DNA of 64,000 bases from a virus. The stretch's first letter is position 1. Every line of letters begins with the position of its first letter. A program made the translations under genes and the position numbers. The notes beneath the pieces were generated by a model. The model was given only the letters and a program-made list of their open reading frames with translations, was not told the origin of the DNA and searched no databases. The DNA is taken from positions 64,001 to 128,000 of the IMG/VR virus record IMGVR_UViG_3300030090_007212; one strand, written 5' to 3'. Shown here in pieces: positions 20,701-41,776 of this stretch.

Positions 20701-23700
20701 TTAAGTTAACCCATTAGTTGTATAAGTAAATAATTTATTAGTTTCACTTCCTTTATCATCTTCATATATTGCCAATATTTTAACCTGATTAGGTTTAGAT
20801 TCTAATTTTTTAATAGTATTCCTATTATTTGTCATCAGTGTATCTATCTCATTTAATCTTTGGATTTCATAAGAAGTATTTAAGGACAAACTATCTCTTT
20901 CTGATTGTAATATCCCATTATCAATTTGTAATTGATTTATTCTATCGTAATTTTGTTGATAATTAGAAATATAGGAAGTTAAATCATATTCTTTTTCTTT
21001 TTTATTTTGGGTTTTATTAAGAACGTCTTTAAAATTATTTGGTGTATCTTGTGTCTGTACTTTTACTTTAATTTTTTTATTATCATCTGGAGTGGCAACC
21101 ACTATTTTATTATTATCTTTTTTATTGATATTAATTGTATTATTAGGTGGTGTACCAGTTTCACTACCAGTCTTTTTGGAGTCTTCCTCTTGTTTTACAA
21201 TACCTTCTTGTTTAAGAGAATCAGTAACTTTTAATAATCCTTCAGGTCCTAAAGCATTTTCTTTCATTTGACCTAATTTTAATCCATCTACTATTGTACC
21301 GGTAGACTTATCTACTGAATCTGCCCTAACATCATACATTTCAGTATTTGCGTAAAAATTAAAAGATAATGCATTTTGTAGTCTATTGATTGGGTTTAAT
21401 AAGGAATGTCCCCCTATTAAATCTATAGACATAGTTACATTTGCCATCATAGGTTGTACACCTATACCCGATGGATTCATATCCCATTGTATTCCATTAC
21501 CTGCCTCATACGTAATATTAAGACTATTAATAACTATTTTAGTATGAAAGAAATCTCCAATTCTTAGGATACAAATTGGTGGTCTACCAAATGCTAAATT
21601 TTGTGGTTGTACCGTATCTTTATCATCATATATACTAGGTCCTTGTCTCATACATTGTTGTAAGAAAGTTAATCTAGTATTTAACCCTTCCGGTGTCATA
21701 GAGTGAAAACCAGGATGGAAATATTTTATTTTTTCTGATATAGTAGAAAAATAGTTAGGGAAATTAGCATCAACAAATTCAAAATAACCATTTTCATCAA
21801 TAACTAAACTATCAATAAGTTGTACTTCTTCAGGATAAAACGAAAGGTCACCTAAAGATTGATCTTTATGATTAATATCTTTACCTTTTAACGCATCATT
21901 TTGTACCGTAACCATTACTCTTCTATCACTAGGACTACTAGAAGAAGGTTCACCTTTTCCAATAATTTGTTTACTATAATCCGATGAATTAACTCCAGCA
22001 CTAGTAAGTCCATTATTAATACTTGACCAAACTGCATTTGCTCTTAAAGTACTAATTTGTTGTGAATCTTGTTCATCATCCGATCCCGCAAATCCCTCAA
22101 CAGTAATTTTTACTTTATCTTCACCATTTATAATAGTTTGTATTTTACTTACTACCGAAGCAGTTGAAGAGGGTGTCCATGTATCTGATTCATCAGTATC
22201 GAATTGGAATTCAAAGGTTTCTTTAATAGAGGTTGTATTACTTACTTTTTCTAATTGTATTTCATTATACTTTTTAGTTATTTCGTCTTTTTGATTTTGA
22301 CTAATACTACTATTCTTATCTAAAAATTCTAAAAATTGGGTAGGTGTAATACATCCCGCAAAAAATCTTTCTATTGCATCGGTTCTTTTACCTCTATAAC
22401 CATTAATAACTCTAGGATGATCAACTAATACTTTGAAACTTAATTGACCAGTTCTATTGGTGTTGTTATATGTGAAAACTGGTTCACCTCTTCCAATAAA
22501 GTCTGTTTTATTCCAATTCGCTGCAACACTTTCATCAAATCTTAAATCATAAGGTGGAAACCACATAATTCTTCCTTTATTACCACTTAAAATATCTCCC
22601 GGACCGATTTCATTAAGAGGTAAATCTGCCAAATTATCTGCCCACGCTAAATTTTCTAACGATAACATAAACTTTTTAAATGTAGTTTTAGAATCATCTT
22701 TAGTAGGATGTGTTTTTACAAATCCATTATCATTCAAAACACTTAAAGATGCTTTTTCATTTGTAACCGAAAATCCAGGTAACGTAGGATCTGGCGAAGA
22801 AAATAATCCCGTATTTCTTATAGCATTAAGATAATTGTAATTATCATTAACTGTCCATACTCTACAGAAATTACCATTTGCCTCTGCCTCAATTAAACTA
22901 AATTTACTTATAGCATTTCCTCTACTTATAAGTTTATCTTCTGTTTTGTCTTTAAAATATTTTTTGGTTTGGTTAATCCATACACCATCAGGATGTTCAT
23001 CTACTAATTTTTGTGTTTTATATAATAATGTTTTTTCATTAAAATTAGATTGGTCACCAGTGTTCCAAAAGAATTTTTCATCTACCGTTGTTGTTTTAGT
23101 AGTGTCTGGTGAGTCCAAACCATCTGCCCCATTAAACTCATCACTTTGAAAAACTTGAGTGATTGTTGCCCCTCTATTTGTACTTCTCTCACTACCTATA
23201 TAATATCTACTATTAGTACCTTCTTCTGAAGTTCCTACCATTCTTCTGTCCGTATAATTTGGGACATATAAATTTTGTTGGAAAGATGTTAATAAAAATC
23301 CTACTTGTTGGGCACTAGTTTTTTCTAACAAACTATTCACTCTCGCCTCAGTTGATAAAGAAGGATTAGTATAATTACCTAATTCTGAATTTACTTTTTG
23401 TAATTGAGATGCTATTTGATTATCTTTACTGTTGGAGTTATATTCTTGCCAACCTACCGCATCATTAGATAAAGTGTTAAAATATGATTGTGTCCCATTT
23501 ATACGATTAATATATTCATCTACACCAAATAAACCAGTAGTAATAGAATCAGTTTTATCGGTTTCTACTTGTGCAATTTTATTACTAACAGAAATTTGTA
23601 ATTCTTCACCACCAACTAACCCTAAAGAAGATTCCTTAGTTAAATTTAAATTCTGATATCTATCTATTACCGTATAAGGGTTAACCACACCTTTTTTATC

Positions 23701-26408: not shown

Positions 26409-26876
26409 TTACTTTTTTTTTCGTATAGAATAATTAATAGATTCTTCAGGACCTATAAGTTTTTCTCTCCCTCTTCTATATATTAAAAGACCCTTTTCTC
26501 TTTGTTTTTTAAAATCCTTCAAAGTAGAGTAATAAAGTCTAATTACAAATGTTTTAGGCATACTAGATGTGCGCAAGTCCATATAATTATTATTACCATT
26601 AACCACTTTAAAATACATTAAACCTTTTAATTTTCGGTCAAAATTTTCAATACCATACTTAGGTAATTGTAATTCAAATTCCCCATCAAAATCAATTTCT
26701 ATATATGAAAACCCTAAAGAGTTCTTATGTAAAGAACGTTTTAATTCTTGCACCTCATCATACATTTTTCGTAATTGTTTAGACTGTGAGGGACTTTCTT
26801 TAAGTAATAAAGTAATATTATTATTAATTTCTTTTATTAATTTATTATAATACTCTATTTTATCATTAGATTTCAT
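26409..26876 (-). CDS. Hypothetical protein with an LxE-type leader
   Basis: 155 aa; LIKE...LLLKE leader; TATTTATA upstream at 26890-26897. Confidence 0.75.
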   Translation of the reverse strand: MKSNDKIEYYNKLIKEINNNITLLLKESPSQSKQLRKMYDEVQELKRSLHKNSLGFSYIEIDFDGEFELQLPKYGIENFDRKLKGLMYFKVVNGNNNYMDLRTSSMPKTFVIRLYYSTLKDFKKQREKGLLIYRRGREKLIGPEESINYSIRKKK

Positions 26877-26911
26877 ATATATCTTTATATATAAATATCT
26901 ATTCTCTAAAA

Positions 26912-27121
26912 TTAATCTTCTTTAGGTGTTAAATAATTTATATAATATCTACGGATATGGGTAGACATCATCATAGTGTCAGAATACGAAAATCCTTTAT
27001 GAACTAAAAATAATTGTTCATTTAATAAATTTTGGTAGTAATGTTTAGATTTCAGGATACCAAAAATTCCTTCCCAATCTAAGAAAGCAACCAACGGACC
27101 CTCCCCCCTGAGTCCGAGCAT
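26912..27121 (-). CDS. Probable frameshift extension (gpT-like) of the tail assembly chaperone
   Basis: Overlaps the end of 27045-27815 in the +1/-2 frame; C-terminal 'LVHKGFSYSDTMMMSTHIRRYY' resembles GT-type chaperone tails; upstream of the tape measure gene. Confidence 0.6.
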   Translation of the reverse strand: MLGLRGEGPLVAFLDWEGIFGILKSKHYYQNLLNEQLFLVHKGFSYSDTMMMSTHIRRYYINYLTPKED

Positions 27122-27815
27122 TAGTTTCTAAATTTATTCCCGGTTCTATTTCCCCAATATATTTATTAAACTTTCGTATTTCTATAAGGTTTAATGTTTT
27201 CAATATATGAGATATTTTCATTTTATCTCTTTCCCCATCTATCTCCATAATAGAACGTTCTAATCTTAATGTAGTATTAGTAGAAATACCCCCATTCTTT
27301 TCTTTTTGTTTTTGATCGATATTTTCTATTTCTTTTTCGTCTTTATGAGTTAGTAATCTAAACTTAATTTTTTTATTAGTTTTAGTAAAAATATAATCAA
27401 ATTCCCCTTTTTCATCAGGTTTAACATTTAAATTTTTCATTTTAAGTTCACTTAAATCTATAATTCCTTCTACTAAATTTCTATCTTCATCAAAAACAGT
27501 TTGGTAGTATTCATTACCTAATCCTGTAGTCCTTAAAAATAATAAAATTGCCATTCTATCCCCACTTAATAGTTCATCATGATCAAAACCCAATTCTTTT
27601 ACTTTCCTTTCTATTAAAACATCTAATGCTTTACCATTAGATAAAAGATTAGGGGAAGTTAAAATATTTTCATCATAAGCAGTCATATATTCTACCTTAA
27701 CTGACGATTTTTTATTCTTATATAAAAGACCTTGAGAAGGTAAATCTATAACATCAAAAGGGACTTTATATTCTTCCGGAACATAATTCGGATCAACAAA
27801 CATTTTCTTTTCCAT
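27045..27815 (-). CDS. Tail/baseplate hub assembly chaperone (T4 gp26-like)
   Basis: 256 aa; 'IDLPSQGLLY', 'YMTAYDENILTS', 'GDRMAILLFLR', 'IKFRLLT', ending 'NFWYPEI'. Confidence 0.8.
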   Translation of the reverse strand: MEKKMFVDPNYVPEEYKVPFDVIDLPSQGLLYKNKKSSVKVEYMTAYDENILTSPNLLSNGKALDVLIERKVKELGFDHDELLSGDRMAILLFLRTTGLGNEYYQTVFDEDRNLVEGIIDLSELKMKNLNVKPDEKGEFDYIFTKTNKKIKFRLLTHKDEKEIENIDQKQKEKNGGISTNTTLRLERSIMEIDGERDKMKISHILKTLNLIEIRKFNKYIGEIEPGINLETNARTQGGGSVGCFLRLGRNFWYPEI

Positions 27816-27860
27816 AAAACTAATTTAATATATTATATAAATATAGTAAATAGTAAAATT

Positions 27861-29453
27861 TTACCAATTTCTAGTATTATCTATTACCTCAATGTTAACC
27901 TCTTCTACTTTTTGATTTTTGATACATTCTGCCTTTGCGTTTTCGATTGCACTTTTCCAATTTTCCCCCTGCTCTCCAGACAGACTCATCATACCATCAA
28001 AAACCTTTTCAGAATCTCTTTTATAACCAGTAATTTGTTCGTCACTGAGACCGGGCGTATTAATTATAATCTGTTGAATTTCTGCTGTCTCTTCCTCAAT
28101 TACCCCCATACTCATTGCTGATAGTATTTGAGAATCAGTTTTATCATTAATATTTTTGCAGTTAATTATGGGATGTTGACCACTAGCAATCTTCTCAAAA
28201 TTACTTATTGTTTTCTTAATTACGTTAGATTTTGCAGTCGCTAAATTATACTTATTATCTGTTGCCCTTTCTAAAGCATCATTAAGACCTTTCATTGCTT
28301 CTTCGGCTACCTCCTTAGCATCGGGCATAAATTTGGCGAAAATATTTGCCCATTCATCAAACACTGCTCTGACAGGATTTTGCCCTTTTCTGGCTGCATC
28401 AATTCCGATGTATGCTGAATACAAACCTGCCGGAATTACTACAATTCTCATAATATAAAAGGGAAGTAGACCTGCATAATCACTATAAGGATATTTTAAA
28501 TAAGCTTTAAAAGGCCCTGTAATAGCACTTTTTGTACCACTCCAGATTTTTTGCAGTCTGGTTTTTTCTTCGATATCTGGCATATCATCTATTTTTTCTT
28601 TTATTTTATCAACATTTACACCTGTACCCTCTATAGGTCCTTTAGGATTATTCTGTATATTGATGTTCTCAACATGTGCACCCTCTTGAATAATAAAAAC
28701 ATTACTCCCCTCACTCTGCACTTTATTGGCTTCATTAGCAATAGCTGTCATATTTTCCTCTGTGGCTACTACAGTTTTACCATCTAATTCATCTAAAGAT
28801 TTACCTTTGGGGTCAACTACCTCATCTACTTTAGGTTTAGTAGGTTCAACCTCCCTCTTCTTAGGATCTACATTTTCAAATTCACCTTTTTCATTTTTCT
28901 TGTATTGATCAACTTTACCAGTTCCATCAGTTTTAGTTATTAATATTTCATCACCTACTTTTTCCACTTCTATTTTGGTAGGATTCATTTCTATTACTTT
29001 TGACCCACCTAAAGCTTCACTGTATAATTCTACTACAGTTTCTCTCATTCCACCTTCGGTGGGTACATCTTTAAGGGCCGCTATAAAAGCATCTTTATCC
29101 ACATTTTTTAACTGACCAGTATTTGCCATATAATCTAAACTTTTAATAAAACTATTTACCTTCACTAAATCTACAGCTGCCGGTACAAGTTGTTTCCAAA
29201 CATTAGGAAATTCATCAATATGTTTACTTAAATCGTCAAAAGTACCTATTTTAAAATTTAAATAATCAGTAAGAATTTTAGGATCAATAGTTTTTAGCCC
29301 AGCAGTAAATGCTCTCTTTAATGATTGAAATGGCCTTCTCTGTTCGTGTAACATAGAGGTATTTTTTACTAGATTACCATATAATCTCTCTTCTGAAAAT
29401 AGGGATTTCATTCTTGAAATCTCTTCATTTAATGTTTTTATTTTATTTTTCAT
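27861..29453 (-). CDS. Leader-bearing protein with a shared ~150 aa module and a membrane-segment C-terminal region
   Basis: 530 aa; leader ending LHEQ; residues ~37-186 are paralogous to 33905-35221; hydrophobic segment GLLPFYIMRIVVIPAGLYSAYIGI. Confidence 0.8.
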   Translation of the reverse strand: MKNKIKTLNEEISRMKSLFSEERLYGNLVKNTSMLHEQRRPFQSLKRAFTAGLKTIDPKILTDYLNFKIGTFDDLSKHIDEFPNVWKQLVPAAVDLVKVNSFIKSLDYMANTGQLKNVDKDAFIAALKDVPTEGGMRETVVELYSEALGGSKVIEMNPTKIEVEKVGDEILITKTDGTGKVDQYKKNEKGEFENVDPKKREVEPTKPKVDEVVDPKGKSLDELDGKTVVATEENMTAIANEANKVQSEGSNVFIIQEGAHVENINIQNNPKGPIEGTGVNVDKIKEKIDDMPDIEEKTRLQKIWSGTKSAITGPFKAYLKYPYSDYAGLLPFYIMRIVVIPAGLYSAYIGIDAARKGQNPVRAVFDEWANIFAKFMPDAKEVAEEAMKGLNDALERATDNKYNLATAKSNVIKKTISNFEKIASGQHPIINCKNINDKTDSQILSAMSMGVIEEETAEIQQIIINTPGLSDEQITGYKRDSEKVFDGMMSLSGEQGENWKSAIENAKAECIKNQKVEEVNIEVIDNTRNW

Positions 29454-29462
29454 CTTTTTTTT

Positions 29463-30104
29463 TTAATATCCTAAATCTGCTTTAGTTAACACGTGGTTAG
29501 TATTTCTTAACTCAGAAATTTTAACTAAAGGGTTACCTGAATTATCTAAAATCATAAAATCATCTCCTAATGTTTTAGTATCTATTCTTTTAGGGTTGTC
29601 GGTAGAATATACACCAGAATAAGTGAGATTTTTATAATTCAATATTATATTTGAGGGGTCACTATCATCACATTCAAATTTACCATCATATTGGACTTGA
29701 GCAAATTCTTTAGTACCATTTACTGCTTTTTGTAAAACACTTAAGGTATCAATATAAGTCATTCTCCCATTATCCCAAAAAGTGTAATTCATATCAGGAT
29801 AATTTCTTCCCTTATGTGTAATGTTACCAACAGAATGCATTAAATAACAATTTCCTACACCAGAATGTTTTTTAATAGTTATATTATTACTATCAATACC
29901 CTGTTGTGTCATCCATTTCTTAACGCATTGTAAAAAAGGTTTATTTTCACATCCTGCACTCGATGTTCTTTGTTCACTTTTATTATAAACTACATAACCC
30001 GCCTTCTCTAATTGTTTCTCACAATCCGCATGAGATTGTTCATTTAGACCCATTAAATGTCTTATCTGATTTATTTCGGTTATAATATTTTTTTTATTCT
30101 TCAT
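29463..30104 (-). CDS. Leader-bearing hypothetical protein
   Basis: 213 aa; begins MKNKKNIITEINQIRHLMGLNEQ. Confidence 0.8.
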   Translation of the reverse strand: MKNKKNIITEINQIRHLMGLNEQSHADCEKQLEKAGYVVYNKSEQRTSSAGCENKPFLQCVKKWMTQQGIDSNNITIKKHSGVGNCYLMHSVGNITHKGRNYPDMNYTFWDNGRMTYIDTLSVLQKAVNGTKEFAQVQYDGKFECDDSDPSNIILNYKNLTYSGVYSTDNPKRIDTKTLGDDFMILDNSGNPLVKISELRNTNHVLTKADLGY

Positions 30105-30255
30105 CTTTTTCTATAATGTTTAAAATCCTTTCAAATTCCTTAATATCCTCATTAATAAATATATCTTGTTCTGAATTAAAACCATATTCTATAATATAAT
30201 TCTTATATTTATCCAGTTTTTCTTTTATTTCAATTAGAGTTATGTTATTTTCCAT
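30094..30255 (-). CDS. Small hypothetical protein (53 aa)
   Basis: MENNITLIEIKEKLDKYKNYIIEYGFNSEQDIFINEDIKEFERILNIIEKDEE; fills the gap between its neighbours; translated by hand. Confidence 0.55.
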   Translation of the reverse strand: MENNITLIEIKEKLDKYKNYIIEYGFNSEQDIFINEDIKEFERILNIIEKDEE

Positions 30256-30259
30256 TATG

Positions 30260-32437
30260 TTAAGGTACTTTATATTTTTCCAAAAAATTATCTATACCCT
30301 CTTCACCTGGTGGATTAGGAGCATTCATTACTTCTACATCAATATTGTCAGGAATATAAACTACTCTTTTACCATCTTCTTTTTCATCAGTGGATTTTTC
30401 ATCACTTTTATGTTTATAAATCGTATCTTTTTTATAATCAGATTTTAGCTCATATCTTTTTTTATAGGTGTCTGTTTGAAATTCTGCAGGTACTTTATTA
30501 AAATCATTCATTGTAGGTTGTTGTTTATTTTGTATGAACTTTTTATCATAAGGTCTCCACCCACTTTTCCACGCTTTAGTTAATAAAATATTATCATCAC
30601 GAGACTTTTCCATAGTAAAATTAGGGTCAGTATTTAAAATAGAACCAAAAATTTGTTTAGTTTGGTTCCAATCGTAACCCTCAACCTCAACGCGATTTTT
30701 AATAGAAGGATGTAATTTATATTTACCTTCTCTATATATTAAACCCACCCATTCTTGAACTTCAGGTAATTGTAAAATTTCTTGTACCCCCACAAATGCA
30801 CCTATTTGAATTAAAAATTCCTTATATAATGGTCTCTTTAGATATTTATTGAGTGTAACTAATACATCACCATTGTTTGCCTTTAATGCGTCTTGCCAAT
30901 CCTTATTTTTAAATATTTCTTGTAAAGAAAATGAATGTTTTTTCCTAACTGTGTTTTCTGCTTTTTCTAAATATTTAGTATAAGTTTTTAATAAATCCGG
31001 TTCAATCTTATTAAAAGTTTTTATTAAATCATGAGCCATTAAAATTTCACTATCTGTCATTTTAAATTTATTGGCTGCATCAGCATAAATTTTTGTCAAT
31101 TTATTTTTATCTTTTATACTTTTTAGGTTTTTAACCGCCCCAAATTCTTTCTTTGTTTTATCTACTACTTCCCCCATATACTTATAAATCTTAGGATTGG
31201 CACTTGCTTTTCTAATATTATTCATACTTTTCATACCACCACCAGCCATACCCCCACCTAATGTTAATATACCAGCAAATATTGCAGCAGTGCGTTCTGC
31301 ACCTGTTTCTGCATTAAAAGCTTCTACACCATAAGCAGTGGCATTAATTGCATCTAACCCAAAACTTATTGCGACCCCATAGACAGGGATTGCTAATGCC
31401 GCAATAGATAATAAATCTAATACACAATGATAATCTTCCGTACATTTACCTAAATAATCTACCACTCCCTCAAAAAATCCTGGGGCATTTTCTTTTTTAT
31501 AGTCTTTAAATTGTTTTGTCCACCCTAATAAATCTTGTTTACTAAAATTTCCATGTTGGGTTAAATATCCATCGTTATGACTTGTTTCGTTTATGCACCC
31601 ACACATATGTCCTGCCTGTGTATTATAAACAAATACTCCCTTTTCTGTTGGATTCCCACAAAATGTCCAAGGACTTTCACTTATATCTTGATAATATACG
31701 TGATACCAACCCCTGGATGTATATCTATTATCTTTAGGTTTCCCATAATATACTTTGTTTTGGGGTCCGGGGGAACCAATTTTTGCTTGTTGTTGACGTG
31801 CTCGTTTTGCCCCCTCATTATCACTACCATAATACTGTATTATCCATTGTTTATCAGAAGTTTTCGTACAATATTGAGATATAAGGTTTTTTTGATCTCT
31901 AATAGTTCGATTCCAGTCTTGCGCCATTATATAATTCTTCCACAATTCCTGTTGATTCATATTATAATCAGATTGTGACAGTTGTTTATAATAGTTATTT
32001 TGTTTTATATACGTACTTAATCCGCCTGTTTCAGTATCTACCGGAATAGAGGGATTATAATCTGCGATTGGGAAGTCATCCACCTCATTATCGTAATTAT
32101 AAGGATGATCTTCTAAAGATTGACCGGGAGGTATTAATTTCTCAAGAATTTCATCGGGTATTAAATTATGACCTGTTTTAGAATTTGGTGCACCCCATAA
32201 TGCCCATTGTCCTTGTGCTCGTTTATATGCACCTTCTGGTGTTGAGTATGCCAATTGTTGGGTAAGACGATTAAATTCCTGTGCCTTATATCGGTCATAT
32301 GAATCCTTATCAAAACCAGATTGATTTTTTTTATAATTATCTACATTATGTGCACCATAAAATGTACCATCCTCAGCAGTATATTGTTCAGTTAAAAAAA
32401 TACGTTTATATTGATTTTCAGTAATACGAAGCTTCAT
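30260..32437 (-). CDS. Leader-bearing protein with a pre-toxin-TG-like hydrophobic hairpin
   Basis: The likely start is 32437 (MKLRITENQYKRIFLTEQ), because the track's longer start lies within a terminator/promoter region. Central segment 'HCVLDLLSIAALAIPVYGVAISFGLDAINATAYGVE'. Confidence 0.8.
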   Translation of the reverse strand: MKLRITENQYKRIFLTEQYTAEDGTFYGAHNVDNYKKNQSGFDKDSYDRYKAQEFNRLTQQLAYSTPEGAYKRAQGQWALWGAPNSKTGHNLIPDEILEKLIPPGQSLEDHPYNYDNEVDDFPIADYNPSIPVDTETGGLSTYIKQNNYYKQLSQSDYNMNQQELWKNYIMAQDWNRTIRDQKNLISQYCTKTSDKQWIIQYYGSDNEGAKRARQQQAKIGSPGPQNKVYYGKPKDNRYTSRGWYHVYYQDISESPWTFCGNPTEKGVFVYNTQAGHMCGCINETSHNDGYLTQHGNFSKQDLLGWTKQFKDYKKENAPGFFEGVVDYLGKCTEDYHCVLDLLSIAALAIPVYGVAISFGLDAINATAYGVEAFNAETGAERTAAIFAGILTLGGGMAGGGMKSMNNIRKASANPKIYKYMGEVVDKTKKEFGAVKNLKSIKDKNKLTKIYADAANKFKMTDSEILMAHDLIKTFNKIEPDLLKTYTKYLEKAENTVRKKHSFSLQEIFKNKDWQDALKANNGDVLVTLNKYLKRPLYKEFLIQIGAFVGVQEILQLPEVQEWVGLIYREGKYKLHPSIKNRVEVEGYDWNQTKQIFGSILNTDPNFTMEKSRDDNILLTKAWKSGWRPYDKKFIQNKQQPTMNDFNKVPAEFQTDTYKKRYELKSDYKKDTIYKHKSDEKSTDEKEDGKRVVYIPDNIDVEVMNAPNPPGEEGIDNFLEKYKVP

Positions 32438-32475
32438 AATTAAATTTATATATAAATAAATATCTATAGGCATAG

Positions 32476-32498
32476 AAAAAGCCACTACAAAGTGGCTT
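32476..32498 (-). terminator. Intrinsic terminator after the tail tube gene
   Basis: AAGCCACT-acaa-AGTGGCTT stem with an adjacent A-run. Confidence 0.75.
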
Positions 32499-32530
32499 AA
32501 TCAATATCTTTATATGGAGATTTAAATCTC

Positions 32531-33019
32531 TTAGAATACGTTGATTGCTCTATCGAACCTCAATGTACATGTGATATCCGCCAAGTCACTAGAAGAATAA
32601 TCCAACCCACCGAAATCTGCGTCGTTAAGTTGAGTTCCTTGAAGAATCCATTTTTGTACTACAACACCTGTAGGATCTAACATTTCTAATTCAACGTCTT
32701 TTTTGTATCCTGCTGCGTAACCTTGTCTACCTGTTACTGATTCAGAGTGAAGTCTTACCCACTCCATTAATGCTTGTGTTGCCGAAGGACCGATTGGATC
32801 TCTAAAGGTAACTGAAATAGTTTCCCATCTAAATCTACCAATAACAAAAGTCTCCGTATTTAAGAAAGGTATTGATACCTCATCACTTGTATATTTTGGT
32901 CGACTTGCTGTAGAAATCCACCATTCTTGAATACCTAATTCATCAGGAAATCTAAGAATCCATCTATTCTTTCTTAATGGTTCGTAAGGAACCGGCATTC
33001 TCATTAATAAATCTGCCAT
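32531..33019 (-). CDS. Tail tube protein (T4 gp19-like)
   Basis: 162 aa; 'EPLRKNRWILRF', 'GRFRWETISVTFRD', 'WILQG', 'DFGGLDY', 'TLRFD'. Confidence 0.9.
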   Translation of the reverse strand: MADLLMRMPVPYEPLRKNRWILRFPDELGIQEWWISTASRPKYTSDEVSIPFLNTETFVIGRFRWETISVTFRDPIGPSATQALMEWVRLHSESVTGRQGYAAGYKKDVELEMLDPTGVVVQKWILQGTQLNDADFGGLDYSSSDLADITCTLRFDRAINVF

Positions 33020-33082
33020 TGTTTTATTTTTTTAATATTGTTTTATTCTTTAATTATAAATATTCGACTTTTAAAAAAAAGT

Positions 33083-33901
33083 TTACTTTTTAACGATAAT
33101 TCTTTTTTTCTTAGGGTTTTCAGGATCAGAAGTATCATATACTAAAAATCTAACATCAGGATATAAACCTTTTAAGGTTTCTTGTATATATCTTTCTGCA
33201 GTTTCCACATTACCTAAATCATCATCACTAAATCCTATACTAATACCCGTATATTCAGGATCGTCTTTTATTTTATCTACTGCCTTTACTACTCTATCTA
33301 CAAAACTCTTTAACGCTAATGTTTTTGCAATTTCAGGTTCGGTAGAAGTAGACTCTATCCCAAACTTTTCCATAAATTCATCAGAAGATACAGGATAATA
33401 ATCTTGTAAATTAAGATATTGATCAATTGATACCCCATGAAGGTTGGCAATCATTTGTCCTCTCTCCTCTTCTGTTAAAATGGTATCTATTATTATCTTT
33501 ATTGCGTCTTTTATTGCCTTTGGAGGATTTCCCCTTGCCGTTATAATAGAGAAATCACTTCCATAGGATAATGCTTCCTTAAATTTATCAAAACTAGGGC
33601 CAAACGCTTGTTTTCTTAATGCTTCATTAGTATCTTTTATAAAAGAATCGTAAGATCTAAAATCTTTAAAAGATTTCATAGGGTCATTATCTACATATCT
33701 ATATAATTTTCCCATTTCTTTACGTACTTCCCTAAATTCTTCTGTAGATACGGAAATAGGTACCCACCCTTTACCCACTCTTTTCTCCAAATATATCTGA
33801 GTAGGCATAAATAAAATATTATCATCCCAATCAAAAGAATATGCTCTTTTTTGGAATTCTAAAAGAAGTTTTTGTTGATATTTTGTTAATCTCAGTTTCA
33901 T
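33083..33901 (-). CDS. HAD-superfamily phosphatase-like protein with an LxE leader
   Basis: 272 aa; motif I 'FDWDDNI', motif II 'IITARG', Lys in 'EIAK', motif IV 'FSDDDLGN'. Confidence 0.8.
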   Translation of the reverse strand: MKLRLTKYQQKLLLEFQKRAYSFDWDDNILFMPTQIYLEKRVGKGWVPISVSTEEFREVRKEMGKLYRYVDNDPMKSFKDFRSYDSFIKDTNEALRKQAFGPSFDKFKEALSYGSDFSIITARGNPPKAIKDAIKIIIDTILTEEERGQMIANLHGVSIDQYLNLQDYYPVSSDEFMEKFGIESTSTEPEIAKTLALKSFVDRVVKAVDKIKDDPEYTGISIGFSDDDLGNVETAERYIQETLKGLYPDVRFLVYDTSDPENPKKKRIIVKK

Positions 33902-33904
33902 TTT

Positions 33905-35221
33905 TTAATGGTTATTTTTCAAATATTCTCTAAAATTATAGATACCATAATTCTCAAAACCTCCTCTGGAAATCATATTATAATTATTACTTTTAATCGC
34001 ATCATTAATAAAAATATCATATTCCTCTACACTTTTAGCGTTTACTATTTTACTCCAATCAATTTCACTTGTATCCCCAAATTTAGTAGAAAGGTAATTT
34101 ATAGGTATAGTTTTAGTTACTTTATTATTACTAAATAAATCCTCAACATCGTTTGGTTTATATGATCCACCAGAATTTTTATTATAATATTGATTATAAT
34201 GTTCCCAATCTCTGAATCCACCGTTAGGGGGTGCACCAATTAACTCGTTTCTATAATGAATTTGAGGTGTAATCATTTTATCTCCCATTATATTACCACC
34301 TTTATTATTATATCCTTGAATTGCAGACTTAATATCTGATAACATCGCACCCTGTTGGTTTTTATCAATTACCGACTTAGGTATATAAATGGTGGCCCCT
34401 TGTTTACCATGTTGAGGTGTGCCGGGTTTCATCTTAACATGATTGACTTGTTCTAACCCACCTACTTTTCCATGTGCACCATATTTTTTAGATACCGGAG
34501 TTAACCTCTCTATTAAAAAGGCAGAATCTTCTAAAGTAGAACCAAATATATGAAATTTCCACCCACTATGGTTAGGCCACTCCACTTTAGATCCAAATTC
34601 TATCCAACCTCTTTCATTTGGATTACCATATTTATAAAGTATGTTAAGAGAATCTTCAATAACACTATTATCAAGTTCTTTTGTTATTGGTAAAAAATTA
34701 GTATTTTTATGTTTTTTATATTGTTTAACCTCATTACCTTTAATTGTGGTAATAATTACTTCATCACCTACCTTTTCCACTTCTATTTTGTAAGGTTTTA
34801 TTTCCCTTACTTTTCCTAGTCGCGATTCATCAAATAGTTCTACTACAGTTTCTCTCATTCCACCTTCTGTTGGAATATCCACCAAAGCCTTAATAAAGTC
34901 TTCAATTTCCACATTTTTTAACTTACCCCTCTTTGCCATATAATCTAAACTTTTAATGAAACTATTTACCTTAACTAAATCTACACTTGCCGGTATAAGT
35001 TGCTTCCAAACCCCTGCGAATTCATCAATATGTTTACTTAAATCATTAAAATTAGTGATTTTAAAATTTAAATAATTAGTAAGAATTTTAGGGTCAATAG
35101 TTTTTAACCCAGCAGTAAATGCTCTCTTTAATGATTGTAATGGTCTTCTTTGTTCCGTTAGAATTCCACCACCATTTTCACATAAAAAATTAAATTGACT
35201 TTCACTAATTATTATCTTCAT
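33905..35221 (-). CDS. Leader-bearing protein with the shared module and an OspF/SpvC-like phosphothreonine lyase domain
   Basis: 438 aa; motifs GWKFHI, GKV, GKQGATIY, GD and YRNEL occur in the order seen in OspF/SpvC and LanL/LanKC lyase domains. Confidence 0.72.
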   Translation of the reverse strand: MKIIISESQFNFLCENGGGILTEQRRPLQSLKRAFTAGLKTIDPKILTNYLNFKITNFNDLSKHIDEFAGVWKQLIPASVDLVKVNSFIKSLDYMAKRGKLKNVEIEDFIKALVDIPTEGGMRETVVELFDESRLGKVREIKPYKIEVEKVGDEVIITTIKGNEVKQYKKHKNTNFLPITKELDNSVIEDSLNILYKYGNPNERGWIEFGSKVEWPNHSGWKFHIFGSTLEDSAFLIERLTPVSKKYGAHGKVGGLEQVNHVKMKPGTPQHGKQGATIYIPKSVIDKNQQGAMLSDIKSAIQGYNNKGGNIMGDKMITPQIHYRNELIGAPPNGGFRDWEHYNQYYNKNSGGSYKPNDVEDLFSNNKVTKTIPINYLSTKFGDTSEIDWSKIVNAKSVEEYDIFINDAIKSNNYNMISRGGFENYGIYNFREYLKNNH

Positions 35222-35244
35222 ATATAATAAATATTATTGGGTAT

Positions 35245-35268
35245 AAAAAAACCCACATAAGTGGGTTT
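35245..35268 (-). terminator. Intrinsic terminator
   Basis: AAACCCAC-ataa-GTGGGTTT stem with a 7-A run. Confidence 0.8.
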
Positions 35269-35291
35269 AGGTAATACTTAGTTTTATGAAA

Positions 35292-35615
35292 TTAATAATT
35301 AGGTATTTTTTCATCCATAGGATATCTACCACTACTTGGCATACATTTTGCCCCACATTCTAATAATTTAGGTCCAATTATAAATGCATCTGTCATATCT
35401 ACACCTTCTAATAATGCTGCAATATCACTCATAGAAGGAGCTTCCATTTCCATTAACATTGCCGCTATTTTCATTGCTTTTGCACTATATTTAGGCCCTA
35501 ATGCGTCTTCCACACAAGAAACACATACTGGAGATGGTTCAATACTTTGCTCTACCAATACTCTTTTAACGATTTTTTGTAAATCCGATTCTTTTAATTT
35601 AATTACTTTTTTCAT
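35292..35615 (-). CDS. Small leader-bearing protein with two Cys pairs
   Basis: 107 aa; begins MKKVIKLKESDLQKIVKRVLVEQ; contains CVSC and CGAKC. Confidence 0.8.
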   Translation of the reverse strand: MKKVIKLKESDLQKIVKRVLVEQSIEPSPVCVSCVEDALGPKYSAKAMKIAAMLMEMEAPSMSDIAALLEGVDMTDAFIIGPKLLECGAKCMPSSGRYPMDEKIPNY

Positions 35616-35665: not shown

Positions 35666-38485
35666 TTAAATATCATCAAAAGATGCACCAGTATTAGTAA
35701 TATTGAATTCTATGCTGATGTATTCTAATGTTCTAGTTGGTTTAATAAAGATTCTACCATTCAACTCATTTCTATCAATTGATTCTGGTGTATCATCTAA
35801 TACCACTCTAAAGTCAGTTAAACCTCTTTCTTTACGGATATTATCCAAAATTGGGTTAACTAATGAAAGGAATTGATTTCTTACAACCTCATCATTTTGT
35901 TCAAATAACAATCTGATAGAAACTGCAGATATAAGTTTTCTTGCTTGAAGTAAAAGTCTTCTAACATTAATTCTATTAAGTGCTGTTTCTTTTTGTTGTA
36001 ATGTTTTATTACCCCAAATTACTACTCCCACATCTGAGAATGTTGCCATTGGGTTAATCATACCTTCATAAAGAGTATCTCTTTGGTCTAAAGTCAATTT
36101 TAATCTCGCTTTAATTGCGTTTGTTGTACCTCTATTTAAACCTGCTGCTGCAAACCAAGGAAATGCAACGTTATCTGTTAATGCAATGTTTCTAACAACC
36201 TCTAATGTTGGTGGTAACCATACATATTGGTTATTTTCTGTATCATTCATCTGTAACCACGGCCAGTAAGTGGCAGAATAGTTACTGTCGATTCCTGCAT
36301 CTGCGATTAAATCAACCGCTTCTTCTGGATCAATTGCTTGTCCATCACTATCAGTATCCGGTGTAGTTAGGATATAAAGTGAATCCGCTCTATCAACTTC
36401 TACAACATCAATTGCATTTTCAATCAATCCTGTTTGATCTCTTACATCCAACCCTGGAGTTGCGAATACATTTATATTAACCGCTTCAGGATTATTGAAT
36501 GTGTATAAACCATCTAAGAATGCGTAATAATCAGAAGTGATTCCTTCATCTCCTTCACTTGTTACAAATGTTTGGAAAGTTCCTGCCAATAATCCTGCCG
36601 CACCATTAGTTCCAGCTTTTGTATAAGAATCTCCGTTAGTTCTTTCGGTTCTATATTCATCCCATCCATCATAACCACCAAATGGTGCAAATGTGAATTT
36701 TCTTGCCGCTAATTTTTCATAAGGACCACTAGTTACTGAAGCGTTACTCGTAAATGCCGATACACCTACTTGAAGTGCTGGGAAGTAACTATCAGCACCT
36801 GCCGATATTTCTGCTCCTTCTGCATTTACATCCATATGGAAACCATCTGTTCTTCCAGTATAAACACCATCATTAACTGCGTTTCTACCTTTATAATCGA
36901 AGTAATCTTGATCTACCCCTATAGAACTATTTAAACCTAAGTAAGTTTTTCTAAGTCTTGCAGTAGTTAATTGTCCGTATGCCGTCTTATATTCAATTTG
37001 TGGTGGTAAAGAAGTTCTTGTACCAATGTATTCCCTATTTAATACTCCCTCAAATCCTGCAGGGAAAGCATTGTGTGGGAAATCATCTGCCAATTCTACC
37101 ATCACATATTCACTACGTAATGGATATTCACCATCCGTAGTACCAATTTTTCTACCAATAAATCCATTATCTGTTGGATCCATTGTAATTTTTGAAAATT
37201 TCTCTACAGTTTGAATATTAGAATCTGTATCATTGAATTTTCTTACCAATAAATCAAATGTTCTTTCATCAGGTTTAATATTAACAATAGAGAATTTAAT
37301 GTCTTCATTCGCTGCGTTACCATCAGATATTGTAACGAATCTAAATAATCTTTGTAATACATTACCTCGTAGTTCTGATAATACATAAGGAGATGATGCA
37401 GATTTCCATTGTTCTTCATAATCATCTAAATTATTAGTGTCAGTAGATAATATTTCATTGAAAGTAATATCTAAACCTCTTACTTTACCTGCACTATTTA
37501 AATCATCTAATGTATTATAGTATAATTCCTCTACCCATAATTCAGTTTCTTTATCCTGTGTCTTACTACCGAATAAACCTGCAATATAGTTAGTTTTTGT
37601 TTTATCTAAAGATGTATCATAACTAAATGTGTTACCCGCTGCCGTTGTACCTGTAATTGTAAACGATGCGAATGGATTAGTAACGATATCATCAGTATTT
37701 GTCATTTCAGTTGCAGTAACCGTATAATCTAAGATTTGGTCACCACCATAGTCACCTCTAGATCTTAATGTTGCAACAACACTACCATCAATACTTGAAT
37801 CACAAGTTGCACTATATGTAACCACCGTACCTGATGTTACACCAGTAATTCCACCTGCAACACTTGATCCGATGGAAATAACCTCCATATCAAATGTTCT
37901 ACCTGTAAAATCACACCCTACTTTAATATACGCTGGATCATCTATTGAGAAATCATCACCTACAGTTGCATTACCAATATTAGTAAATGTAGAAGATATC
38001 TCCCCATCATCATATAAGTCTTGTAAACCACTACTAGCGTCAAATGTCATAGTAACTGGTGTACCACCTGTGGTTGCACTAAACGTTAATAACGGATCAT
38101 AAGAAGTAGTATCTGTTATACTTACTGTATCCGCATCAGGATTAGAGTCTAATGTAATACTCCACGCACTACCTGCCTTATAACCTGAATACCCCAATAC
38201 TCTACTTACATATAATTGGTTAGTTTGTGTAAGAAATGATTTTGCAATGTAATTTAATTCATATTTGTGAAAACCAGAACCTTTAAATTTCTCAGAATTC
38301 AAACCACCAAAATAATTCATGAATTCATTATAGTTTGAAATAAAGACTGGTTCAAATGCTGGCCCTTTCGGAGTTTCACCTACTAATCCTAATGTAGTGA
38401 CTCCTACTTGTCTTGTTACAAATGTTAAATCCTTTTCTGAGGTGAATACCCCCGGACTAACAAAAATTCTATCTGTCGATGCCAT
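35666..38485 (-). CDS. Contractile tail sheath protein (T4 gp18-like)
   Basis: 939 aa; 'FVSPGVFTSEKD', 'GETPKGPAFEP', 'YWPW', 'PWFAAAGLNRG', 'WGNKTL', 'RINVRRLL', 'IKPTRTLEYI'. Confidence 0.96.
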   Translation of the reverse strand: MASTDRIFVSPGVFTSEKDLTFVTRQVGVTTLGLVGETPKGPAFEPVFISNYNEFMNYFGGLNSEKFKGSGFHKYELNYIAKSFLTQTNQLYVSRVLGYSGYKAGSAWSITLDSNPDADTVSITDTTSYDPLLTFSATTGGTPVTMTFDASSGLQDLYDDGEISSTFTNIGNATVGDDFSIDDPAYIKVGCDFTGRTFDMEVISIGSSVAGGITGVTSGTVVTYSATCDSSIDGSVVATLRSRGDYGGDQILDYTVTATEMTNTDDIVTNPFASFTITGTTAAGNTFSYDTSLDKTKTNYIAGLFGSKTQDKETELWVEELYYNTLDDLNSAGKVRGLDITFNEILSTDTNNLDDYEEQWKSASSPYVLSELRGNVLQRLFRFVTISDGNAANEDIKFSIVNIKPDERTFDLLVRKFNDTDSNIQTVEKFSKITMDPTDNGFIGRKIGTTDGEYPLRSEYVMVELADDFPHNAFPAGFEGVLNREYIGTRTSLPPQIEYKTAYGQLTTARLRKTYLGLNSSIGVDQDYFDYKGRNAVNDGVYTGRTDGFHMDVNAEGAEISAGADSYFPALQVGVSAFTSNASVTSGPYEKLAARKFTFAPFGGYDGWDEYRTERTNGDSYTKAGTNGAAGLLAGTFQTFVTSEGDEGITSDYYAFLDGLYTFNNPEAVNINVFATPGLDVRDQTGLIENAIDVVEVDRADSLYILTTPDTDSDGQAIDPEEAVDLIADAGIDSNYSATYWPWLQMNDTENNQYVWLPPTLEVVRNIALTDNVAFPWFAAAGLNRGTTNAIKARLKLTLDQRDTLYEGMINPMATFSDVGVVIWGNKTLQQKETALNRINVRRLLLQARKLISAVSIRLLFEQNDEVVRNQFLSLVNPILDNIRKERGLTDFRVVLDDTPESIDRNELNGRIFIKPTRTLEYISIEFNITNTGASFDDI

Positions 38486-38572
38486 TTATTTAATTTTTTA
38501 AAATTTATATTATTTTATCTTTATATTATAAATATGCTGGTTTTTATGAAAGTATTTTAATGTTTTAAAATT

Positions 38573-38848: not shown

Positions 38849-41776
38849 TTATTTTTTAACTTTAGCTTGTAGTGGTGTATAAACAATATCTACATAAGAC
38901 CCTTCAGCTTTTATAGCTTTTATAGTCTCATTTAACTCAGCGTGTACCTGCTCGTAGTTGGCTGCCATTGAGCCTGACCATATAGCTGGCATACTTGCTG
39001 TGTTGTAATTATCCCCTGGTCTCCCAGCGAATGTATTATTATCGTTCATTGCACTTGCAAGATATTGAGATAATCCTGGAGCGTTTGGATCCCAATTCAT
39101 TGCTTCCTCTAACATGCTGTGATAAGTATCAAAGTCACCACCAGCGGCAACTCCTTCTCTAACATGGTTATAGAAATTAATCATTGGACCATACTCTCTA
39201 ACTAAGTTTTCCAATCCTTTACGACCATTCACATATGATATAAACATTTGGAAAGGGTCAGGACCTAAACCAATACTACCTTCAAAAGTTAACCAAAATT
39301 CTCTTTTGATTTCTCCTTCAGATTTAGGTTCTTCAACTGGTGCATCTATAGGTTCTTCCACTTCACCTTCTTCTTTAATAGAATCTAGTTCCGCTTCCGC
39401 TTCTTTTAATGCCTTGGCAGCTTCCTCACCTTCAACAGCGGCCTGTTTATGCATATCCCTTACAGTTGCAACTTCTGCTTCTGCTTGAGATACCCATTCC
39501 TTATTATCTTCAGATGGGTCAGCATCATAAGCTTCTTTAGCAGCTTTAAGTTCCGCCTCTACTTTCTCTAACGTTTTACTAACAGAGTCATATTCTTTGT
39601 TAGCTTTGTCAGAAGCAGCTTGCGCCTCTTTAACTTCAGTTTCAGCCTTTTGGATTGCCTCTTTTCTAGCTTCTTCTTCAGCTTTCTTCTTAGCTTCTTC
39701 TTCAGCTTTCTTAGCATCTTCTTCAGCTTTCTTCTTAGCTTCTTCTTCAGCTTTCTTAGCTTCTTCTTCAGCTTTCTTAGCTTCTTCTTCAGCTTTCTCA
39801 ATCAAAGATTTGATATCTTTAATCTGACCTTCCAAAGTTTTCAATGAAGCATCTGCAATTGGAAGAAAAACTCCACCATTATCGACATATTCAGAAATTT
39901 CCTTTCTCTGACCTTCATATTGATTTAAAATAATAAGTAAGTCTTCAACATCCAACTCACCATTATGTTGAGGTGTGACTTCTAAGAACGCAGGAACAGG
40001 TTCAGGAGCCGGAAGTTCAACTCCACTCTCTAACTCTTTAATCTCCTCTTTTAAAGAAGATATTTTTTCCTGAAGTTCAGCATTTTCCTCATCCAATTGC
40101 GAAATTTCGTCCTCAAGAGTTACAATACTTTCTTTACTAGAAGATATGCTATCTTTAAGTTCATCAATTTCAGCTTTTGATTTAGAAATACTTTCATCAT
40201 ACTCAACTATAGATTTAATAGTCTCCGCTAAAGATTTTTGTGATTCATGAAGTTCTTTGGAATCTTCCTTTATCATATCCTCTAACTGAGCGAGTTTTGT
40301 TTCCATTTCTAAAAATTCAGGAGTATCTGGAGTTAAATCCTCTTCCATATGTTGTATCATCTTAGCTTTCTTTTCCTGCCTTTGAGCGAGTTCTTGAGTT
40401 TTCATGTCTATAGAATCTTCTATATCCACTTTTTGGTCATTTAAATCTCTTAAATCACTTTCACTCATTGCCAACTCAGTTTCTTTGGCATCTAAATCAG
40501 CTTCTCCATGCTCAACATCGTCTTTAGTTGCTGTAAGCTCATCTTGCTTTGCAGTAAGTTCAGTTTCTACCTCTTCTCTCTTAGTTTCATTCTCTTCTAA
40601 ACTTCCTTTAGCCTTAGCTAAAGCTATTAGGTTTAGTTTCCCATCAACTGGTTGGAAGGGTCCTTCCTGTTCTTTCTTCTTAGCTTCTTCTGCAGCTTTC
40701 TCCCTAGCTTCTTCTTCAGCTTTCTTCTTAGCTTCTTCTTCAGCTTTCTTCTTAGCTTCTCTTTCCGCTTCAACAGCTTCTTTTTCCGCTTTATACATAA
40801 GAATAGAGTTTTCATAACTTACAGCTTCTTTTTCAGCTTGTTTAACTATATACGACTCTCTCTCCTCATCCTGCATTTTTTCTAAAAGTTTCTCGAATTG
40901 TTCTTCAGACATACCCTCTTCTTTAGCTATAACTATAGCCTCTTCAATAATAGCGTCAGAAAAACCTTCTCGTGCTTCATCCTCAATATCAGATATTCTT
41001 TTTAGAAGAGTTGGTATTTCACCTTCTCCTTCTACTTGCATATCTGCATCAACAATTTTTTGTACTCGAAGTTGTATTTCTTGACTAACTATTCTTTTAC
41101 GAGAGCTTTCTATTGATCTACCAACAAATTCTTTAGAAGCCTCTAATGATTCTTCAATTACTTCGTCAATAGACATTTCTGCACCTTTAGATTTAACAGA
41201 AATTCTTAGTTTTTGCATTGTTTTTGTTCTTATAGCTTCTAACCCTTCTTCAATACCTTCATTTTCTACATCTGCTCTCACAGCTGCAACCAATGATTTT
41301 TGAAGATTATTCACTGCATTAAATGCGGCAAATAAAGTTGAAGATACGTCATCATTTTGGGATAAACGTTTAGACGCAGAAACACCAAAAAGGTCTTCCT
41401 TCTCTAAATTAACCCCACAAGCTTTAACTAAGTTAACTGTTGCAGTTTTTGCATCTTCTACAGAATCTCCATCATCCATGAAACCTTTAACCATTGTAGT
41501 TACTGGGGAAATATTCAGTGATATCTCAGTGTGACCTTTAAATACCTCTTTATTTTCCTCACCAGTCCAAACATTGGATCCACCTGATGCTTTGAATGAT
41601 CCACTATACCCTGCAGGTATTGCAAATTCACCCATTGAATTAGTGGTAGTTGTTTCACCAGTTTCAAATTCTATATCTGCACCCTCAATAGGAGCATCCT
41701 CTAATGTTCCTGTATCTCCGGTGTCGTCATCATCGCCACCGTCACCTTCTTGTTCGGCTTCAGTGTTTCCTATGAA
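38849..41776 (-). CDS. Long acidic coiled-coil protein with KKAEEEA repeats; probable -1 frameshift extension of 41770-43050
   Basis: The track ORF starts at 41635, but the frame stays open and protein-like for 47 more codons up to the slippery site at 41776-41782. Confidence 0.75.
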   Translation of the reverse strand, partial: FIGNTEAEQEGDGGDDDDTGDTGTLEDAPIEGADIEFETGETTTTNSMGEFAIPAGYSGSFKASGGSNVWTGEENKEVFKGHTEISLNISPVTTMVKGFMDDGDSVEDAKTATVNLVKACGVNLEKEDLFGVSASKRLSQNDDVSSTLFAAFNAVNNLQKSLVAAVRADVENEGIEEGLEAIRTKTMQKLRISVKSKGAEMSIDEVIEESLEASKEFVGRSIESSRKRIVSQEIQLRVQKIVDADMQVEGEGEIPTLLKRISDIEDEAREGFSDAIIEEAIVIAKEEGMSEEQFEKLLEKMQDEERESYIVKQAEKEAVSYENSILMYKAEKEAVEAEREAKKKAEEEAKKKAEEEAREKAAEEAKKKEQEGPFQPVDGKLNLIALAKAKGSLEENETKREEVETELTAKQDELTATKDDVEHGEADLDAKETELAMSESDLRDLNDQKVDIEDSIDMKTQELAQRQEKKAKMIQHMEEDLTPDTPEFLEMETKLAQLEDMIKEDSKELHESQKSLAETIKSIVEYDESISKSKAEIDELKDSISSSKESIVTLEDEISQLDEENAELQEKISSLKEEIKELESGVELPAPEPVPAFLEVTPQHNGELDVEDLLIILNQYEGQRKEISEYVDNGGVFLPIADASLKTLEGQIKDIKSLIEKAEEEAKKAEEEAKKAEEEAKKKAEEDAKKAEEEAKKKAEEEARKEAIQKAETEVKEAQAASDKANKEYDSVSKTLEKVEAELKAAKEAYDADPSEDNKEWVSQAEAEVATVRDMHKQAAVEGEEAAKALKEAEAELDSIKEEGEVEEPIDAPVEEPKSEGEIKREFWLTFEGSIGLGPDPFQMFISYVNGRKGLENLVREYGPMINFYNHVREGVAAGGDFDTYHSMLEEAMNWDPNAPGLSQYLASAMNDNNTFAGRPGDNYNTASMPAIWSGSMAANYEQVHAELNETIKAIKAEGSYVDIVYTPLQAKVKK
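39664..39798. repeat. Tandem 21/24-bp repeats encoding (K)KKAEEEA
   Basis: GCTTCTTCTTCAGCTTTCTT(CTT)A units; a second shorter array lies at ~40672-40760. Confidence 0.9.

Follow-up and report, generated by a model that had tools for sequence, protein, structure and literature searches.

We identified, in a 64,000-nucleotide (nt) window of viral DNA (bases 64001-128000 of the 138.5-kb IMG/VR record IMGVR_UViG_3300030090_007212), a 438-residue protein whose central domain almost certainly belongs to the OspF/SpvC/LanKC superfamily of phospho-Ser/Thr lyases, as judged by profile, fold and catalytic residues. The protein (P0001), encoded by the open reading frame (ORF) at 33905..35221 on the minus strand, is built of modules and has an accessory role in a myovirus of jumbo size that has not been cultured. 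The explanation that accounts best for it as a whole, to which we give a probability of about 0.5, is that it would be an active lyase on packaged, processed and injected cargo, acting on the products of host kinases. Phospho-Ser/Thr lyases are known as type III effectors, which shut down the mitogen-activated protein (MAP) kinases of the host for good, and as the enzymes of the dehydration step in lanthipeptide synthesis. Coordinates are window positions throughout, and all parts of the gene lie on the minus strand.

A sequence-only reading of this DNA had proposed a lyase domain from five short motifs in the C-terminal half of the protein. A script located all five exactly where that reading had placed them: GWKFHI (residues 220-225; 34547-34564), GKV (251-253; 34463-34471), GKQGATIY (272-279; 34385-34408), GD (313-314; 34280-34285) and YRNEL (323-327; 34241-34255). 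Since GKV recurs by chance at residues 136-138 and GD at 152-153 and 382-383 of the same protein, these two mean little by themselves. The motifs cited from the effectors for comparison are genuine: SpvC of pSLT has GDKFHI at 102-107, WKV at 135-137, TLY at 156-158 and YRNE at 212-215, and its residues K104, H106, K136, R148, Y158, D201, R213 and R220 all stand at their published positions. The motifs do fall in the C-terminal half, whereas the domain that they mark is the middle of the protein (residues ~196-368), with a module of ~70 residues after it.

The domain was placed through its family. A profile of 27 members (alignment A1), in which K252 is the sole invariant column, was compared with 177,635 PDB sequences and matched ThurKC best (8sao_B, E = 1.7e-10). 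In total the profile matched eight class III lanthipeptide synthetase sequences, the remaining seven at E 1.6e-08 to 1.1e-05, and in all eight the alignment fell on the N-terminal lyase domain; the search returned only two other rows, at E 0.097 and 0.17. The match to the LanKC lyase domain is far stronger than chance would give, and a chance occurrence of the motifs was rejected. Consistent with this, 15 of the 27 family members matched the Pfam family RamC_N (PF25816) at E <= 1, with a best value of 9.1e-07.

The predicted fold pointed the same way. An AlphaFold2 model of the domain built from A1 had a predicted local distance difference test (pLDDT) score of 91.9 and a predicted template modelling (pTM) score of 0.88. 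A structural comparison with known lyases had been suggested as a check, and Foldseek returned 18 PDB matches at E <= 0.001, all of them LanKC enzymes or SpvC/VirA lyases. Next, at E 1e-03 to 2.7e-02, came OspF, effectors of the HopA1 type and the LxmKY complex of lexapeptide synthesis. Among the viral models of BFVD none matched at E <= 0.001, the best being a Tupanvirus orfan (E = 0.027). Direct sequence comparison with the effectors gave no significant result: hhalign of the family against SpvC alone reached a probability of 3% over 35 columns around YR(N/Y)EL, the PDB profile search returned no SpvC or OspF chain at E <= 10, and no effector family was among the 13 Pfam families matched by the 27 members. 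Because the hhalign comparison with SpvC is not significant, it is the fold, together with the lanthipeptide enzymes as a bridge, that links the domain to the effectors, and not sequence. The proposed likeness to OspF/SpvC thus stands at the level of the superfamily, while in sequence the domain lies nearer the lanthipeptide (RamC_N) enzymes, whose lyase domain is, on this sequence evidence, its nearest branch by descent.

The catalytic residues of the superfamily are retained to a large extent. Equivalences were taken from the HMMER alignment to 8sao_B (chain index + 3 gives the published numbering) and from the mutagenesis reported in PMC10604976, and conservation was counted over 116 distinct domain sequences (120 hits). 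K222 corresponds to ThurKC K65 and SpvC K104, which bind phosphate, and is kept in 107 of 109 sequences; it lies with H224, the general acid (ThurKC H67, SpvC H106; 104 of 109), in K222-F-H224 at 34550..34558. The catalytic base K252 (34466..34468; ThurKC K94, SpvC K136) is kept in 112 of 113. K273 (ThurKC K117, SpvC R148; 110 of 113) and Y279 (SpvC Y158, in TLY; 111 of 114) delimit the stretch 34385..34405, and D314 (ThurKC D152, SpvC D201; 103 of 113) and R324 (ThurKC R163, SpvC R213, in YRNE; 112 of 114) the stretch 34250..34282. The six residues with catalytic equivalents in ThurKC are therefore kept in 91-99% of relatives. In ThurKC itself, K65A and R163A gave no turnover, K94A gave only unmodified peptide, and with H67A, K117A or D152A dehydration of the ThurA1 peptide was stalled or reduced (PMC10604976). 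From sequence and model, we consider it likely that the phage domain is catalytically competent.

The same columns bear on a different role, in which the domain would be a phospho-peptide binding module or pseudoenzyme that docks on a phosphorylated partner. K222, K273 and R324 match three of the four phosphate ligands (SpvC K104, R148 and R213), and the equivalent of the fourth (SpvC R220, ThurKC R191) was not identified, its position lying beyond the HMMER alignment. The window copy also reads YRNE where most of the family has YRYE (N at that column in 4 of 114 sequences), and the ratio of nonsynonymous to synonymous substitution rates (dN/dS) in the domain is 0.28-0.50 for orthologues 58-82% identical (seven of ten pairs, those left out involving the identical sequences of contigs L004 and L005), which indicates purifying, not strict, selection and only moderate constraint. 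Against a mere docking role, however, stand the near-invariance of the base K252 and the retention of the acid H224 at the frequencies given above, the conservation of D314, which binding alone would not need, and the presence of YRNE in SpvC itself; we regard such a role as highly unlikely.

In the mechanism that we propose instead for an active lyase, K252 would abstract the alpha-proton and H224 would protonate the leaving phosphate, which K222, K273 and R324 would hold in place. The product would be dehydroalanine or dehydrobutyrine, a site that could no longer be phosphorylated. Because no kinase is fused to the domain or found nearby, the phosphate on its substrates would have to come from another source, for which Ser/Thr kinases of the host are the most plausible. 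On balance we lean slightly towards a lyase that acts on phosphoproteins made by another party's kinase; kinase-based defence might be disarmed in this way.

The claim that the enzyme stands alone, with no kinase or cyclase, held up when related genomes were searched. Pkinase was found in none of six records, namely that of the window and five related lyase-bearing viral records, and neither an APH-type kinase nor a LANC_like cyclase in the five records searched for them; control searches for the three families matched in 12, 13 and 2 of 14 reference genomes, respectively. All of the records are fragments, 17-64% complete, and absence from whole genomes is therefore not proven by these counts. 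A profile search of longer proteins returned 20 phage-type fusions of 388-605 residues that had no precomputed Pfam domain, and one distant protein of 1,916 residues with EF-hand and RamC_N domains; none of the relatives of 383-605 residues had a precomputed kinase domain. A scan for the signature SGWK(F/L/I)H(I/V)(Y/F) found 12 loci in viral contigs, and a like scan of one genome from each of 185,579 prokaryote species found a single locus. The family forms a branch, free of kinases, that comprises 116 or more distinct sequences, almost entirely on viral contigs. The names given at the source are without exception 'hypothetical protein'. The single cellular locus, L015:7965-8438 (+), is a leaderless stand-alone copy of 157 residues in a metagenome-assembled genome of Pacearchaeota, where the neighbouring genes look cellular by eye, with N-termini like those of an aminoacyl-tRNA synthetase, an RNase H and an acylphosphatase.

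These searches also weigh on the idea that the lyase modifies phage proteins or peptides, forming dehydro-amino acids for cross-linking or maturation with an unrecognized or host kinase in a split pathway like those of peptides that are made on the ribosome and modified after translation (RiPPs). Such a role would fit the lanthipeptide lyase domains as nearest sequence relatives, the existence of a split kinase/lyase pair in class V systems (the LxmKY matches), and the small leader-bearing ORFs with Cys and Ser that adjoin the gene. One of these, at 35292-35615 (-) upstream of the lyase gene, encodes 107 residues, several of them Cys and Ser. The part that follows its leader, however, is not conserved at the orthologous loci L003-L005. 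Besides the kinase and cyclase families not found in the records searched, the enzyme itself bears a leader, and 80 related loci have the same gene slot without any lyase, so that it cannot be needed for an essential step of maturation. We therefore consider a phage substrate quite unlikely. A lanthipeptide-like gene cluster was rejected, as neither a kinase nor a cyclase was found in the records searched and no precursor is conserved.

Delivery with the virion is suggested by the N-terminus of the protein. Residues 1-23 (35153..35221) form a class A leader, recognized by leader hidden Markov models (HMMs), with LCE at residues 13-15 and LTE at 20-22; residues 1-24 had pLDDT < 50, and in the model they are a helix that stands detached from the well-folded domain behind it. 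The HMMs matched 138 of 379 N-termini, none of 313 internal windows and none of 379 reversed N-termini, of which only the controls are informative, the HMMs having been seeded from the scored set. The leader was found in 46 of 74 lyase fusions (a few more by eye) and in none of the 46 stand-alone forms. In the record of the window, at least nine ORFs bear a leader, including those within 26409-35615 of the window and those at C1:12187-12816, 21119-22351 and 38997-39563, so that the leader is indeed common to the lyase protein and unrelated neighbours, as had been claimed. More widely, two short helical leader classes begin many unrelated proteins of this phage group. Compared with cultured phages by tblastn, a 27-residue leader gave only matches at E >= 6.

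A paralogue in the window shows how the leader is exchanged. The ORFs at 27861-29453 (-) and 33905-35221 (-) share an N-domain of ~150 residues that is 66% identical, while their leader classes differ and their C-terminal parts are unrelated. High identity between the two starts at EQRRP, and the leader is swapped exactly at the E-Q boundary.

In phage T4 the prohead protease gp21 has (L/I)xE as its cleavage site, cutting behind the E, and Alt, an ADP-ribosyltransferase that modifies the host, is injected. By analogy, the leader described here would be a capsid-targeting and processing signal ending in LxE, and the particle would take up the enzyme, which a protease of the gp21 type would trim and which would be delivered with the DNA like Alt and the T4 internal proteins. 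Of 11 related records, 5 (G002, G003, G004, G006 and G010) encode a match to Peptidase_S77, the family of T4 gp21, that exceeds the Pfam cut-off (E 1e-23 to 1e-27), in ORFs of ~240 residues at loci L017, L018, L019, L100 and L101, and two of these five records share the synteny of the tail sheath gene and a 272-residue gene described below. The T4 internal proteins offer a further parallel, being a diverse anti-defence set with only the capsid-targeting sequence in common (PMC3012670). With the LxE sites of the leader, the S77 proteases of relatives and a promoter-like motif that tail genes also have as circumstantial support, virion delivery is a plausible but still tentative reading, falling somewhat short of even odds.

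That promoter-like motif is the octamer ATATTTAT, which lies at 35227-35234 on the minus strand, 5 nt before the start codon of the lyase gene, and follows a terminator-like hairpin of the upstream gene (35268..35249, minus strand). Of its 18 minus-strand copies, 15 stand 3-50 nt upstream of the start of a minus-strand ORF, including those of the sheath, tube, hub and lyase genes; examples besides that of the lyase gene are at 38528-38535, 33056-33063 and 27837-27844. Overall the octamer is not clearly enriched: 35 copies were counted where 26 +/- 4.5 would be expected, a number that 3 of 100 shuffles also reached. The shared motif suggests that the lyase may be co-expressed with the structural genes.

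Several observations weigh against an active lyase delivered as virion cargo. Besides the unidentified fourth phosphate ligand, the moderate constraint and the non-significant alignment with SpvC, the window's own domain matched nothing by itself in Pfam, PHROGs, NCBIfam or PDB sequences, so that the family profile and the fold were needed to place it. The gene sits in the tail module, not in a head module. Peptidase_S77 was not found in the window's own record (G000) or in its closest relative (G001), both fragments ~40% complete. Finally, 46 of the 120 family members are short and leaderless, which shows that the enzyme is useful without a leader.

The last three of these points would suit an active lyase that is never packaged, being made late and acting within the infected cell on host or phage phosphoproteins, with a leader that serves assembly-site targeting, chaperone binding or regulated turnover. 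Some of the leaderless stand-alone members lie on viral contigs beside leader-bearing genes, and the lyase gene shares its upstream motif with late structural genes. This alternative has more difficulty with the leader itself, which is strictly N-terminal, common to dozens of unrelated proteins, swapped at the E-Q boundary and modelled as a detached helix, and with the presence in related phages of the protease family by which leaders of this kind are processed in T4. We judge it unlikely, and continue to prefer the injected lyase as the better account of the protein as a whole.

The remaining parts of the protein are specific to these phages. When all of 1.84 billion representatives were searched by phmmer, the protein had 155 matches at E <= 0.001, and jackhmmer on 151 relatives set the module boundaries. 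The whole protein had no match in Pfam (E <= 10), PHROGs, NCBIfam or, by phmmer, PDB sequences, and none by tblastn against 50,697 phage records. Behind the leader, the N-domain (residues ~24-180; 34682..35152) consists of helices followed by a small beta-sheet, and is common to many proteins of 580-770 residues and to the paralogue at 27861-29453. It had no usable match in the ESM Atlas, and its AlphaFold model (pLDDT 78.1) could be assigned no fold, the best Foldseek matches being COMMD-like proteins at E 0.016 with template modelling (TM) scores of 0.14-0.21; ten proteins that share it contained no credible domain in Pfam. The lyase domain (residues ~196-368, HMM envelope 201-367; 34118..34636), placed by profile, Pfam and fold, occurs also alone, as proteins of 157-218 residues. 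The C-terminal module (residues 369-437; 33911..34117) was delimited by the jackhmmer module map, with separate matches to residues ~375-437. This module of ~70 residues also closes ~40 other proteins, many of them leader-bearing, with or without a lyase domain.

In addition, the gene setting shows the lyase to be a variable element of the genome. The window has a G+C content of ~30%, with nearly all genes on the minus strand, and the source record is ~42% complete by CheckV. Because the identical protein occurs on a contig of 297,246 bp, the longest of 12 contigs that carry it, the phage genome is probably ~300 kb. The lyase gene (33905-35221, minus strand) is located between genes for the tail sheath (ORF 35666-38485; 939 residues; E 1.9e-63) and the tail tube (ORF 32531-33019; E 4.8e-23), and a weak match to a baseplate hub is at ORF 27045-27815; these three, identified by PHROGs and Pfam, are the only neighbours named by Pfam, PHROGs or NCBIfam. 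On contigs L003-L005, which are close to this phage, a lyase protein occupies the same position with different N-terminal parts (567 and 582 residues), and on contigs less close to it the lyase protein is embedded in series of other proteins with a leader.

Starting 3 nt after the lyase stop codon is a core gene of 272 residues (33083..33901, minus strand), with 727 homologues, mostly of 272-286 residues, and found on 154 viral stretches. It was called in 76 of 80 related loci (L020-L099), between sheath and tube, and the order in these 76 is sheath, 0-3 variable ORFs (63-594 residues, often leader-bearing), the 272-residue gene and usually the tube. No lyase domain was present among the 554 ORFs of the 80 loci or in their six-frame translations; because none of these loci carries it, the lyase is to be counted among the accessory genes, placed in a slot of variable content, and has no core function. 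A conserved pairing of the lyase with the 272-residue gene was rejected, as the neighbour is present in related loci that have no lyase. The slot between the sheath and the 272-residue gene is a hot spot of cargo gene exchange in related phages. The invariant DWDDN, SIITAR and GFSDDD of the 272-residue protein resemble what we take to be the motifs of HAD phosphatases, and this assignment was dropped, since its sequence and profile matched no HAD structure and had no support from Pfam or NCBIfam.

Searches of the full-text literature, with subscription journals outside their scope, found no description of a phage phospholyase, in agreement with the impression that no such phage effector had been reported; a comparative genomics paper on jumbo phages (PMC7824862) has no mention of OspF, SpvC, phospholyase or lanthi- terms. 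If our interpretation is true, the kinase-free viral branch would be a third setting for phospho-Ser/Thr lyases, that of phage against bacterium. Phosphorylation is used by both sides of this conflict, and the T7 kinase disarms bacterial defences (PMC13645617); an irreversible phospho-eraser would add to it a weapon of a new type. A wider picture, in which uncultured jumbo phages load dozens of interchangeable leader-directed enzymes and one injected 'phospho-eraser' pre-empts host kinase-based immunity or signalling, by turning phospho-Ser/Thr of the host irreversibly into dehydro-amino acids on entry, is conceivable, though we think it improbable. The small (~170 residues) and confidently modelled domain could serve as a reagent for the introduction of dehydroalanine into proteins.

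Taken together, our results set the phage protein apart from each of the systems that it resembles. The lyase domain of the class III/IV enzymes LanKC and LanL (RamC_N, PF25816; ThurKC 8SAM/8SAO, CuvL 8CAV, PneKC, SalKC) is the nearest relative by sequence, but there it invariably opens a kinase-cyclase enzyme whose substrate is its own leader-bound peptide, whereas the phage lyase is flanked by phage-specific modules in a virus, and no kinase, cyclase or recognizable precursor was found in the related records. HopA1/LanY (LxmY) proteins share 8-12% identity with the phage domain in structural alignment, and LxmY of class V works in complex with a dedicated kinase, LxmK, while no APH-type kinase was found in the phage records. 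The T4 internal proteins and Alt are comparable in their proposed delivery only, as unrelated cargo with a short N-terminal signal in common and a gp21-type protease in the phage group; the genes described here lie in a tail module, and the likeness to the T4 signal is one of arrangement, with no sequence similarity claimed.

The effectors OspF (Shigella), SpvC (Salmonella), VirA (Chromobacterium) and HopAI1 (Pseudomonas) belong to the same superfamily, SpvC having most of the catalytic residues in common with the phage domain, with no significant direct sequence match. In place of their type III signal and MAP kinase-docking region, the N-terminus of the phage protein appears to be a phage leader and a phage-specific N-domain, and the target of the phage lyase would be bacterial, whereas theirs are eukaryotic MAP kinases. 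The protein has neither the architecture of LanKC enzymes nor the sequence of the effectors. Its most fitting place is in a new branch of the phospho-Ser/Thr lyase superfamily, one that phages carry. By analogy, its mode of action would be most like that of OspF and SpvC, as a stand-alone eraser directed against the kinases of another organism, and an injected eraser of this kind would, if true, be the phage counterpart of the strategy that bacteria use on eukaryotic cells.

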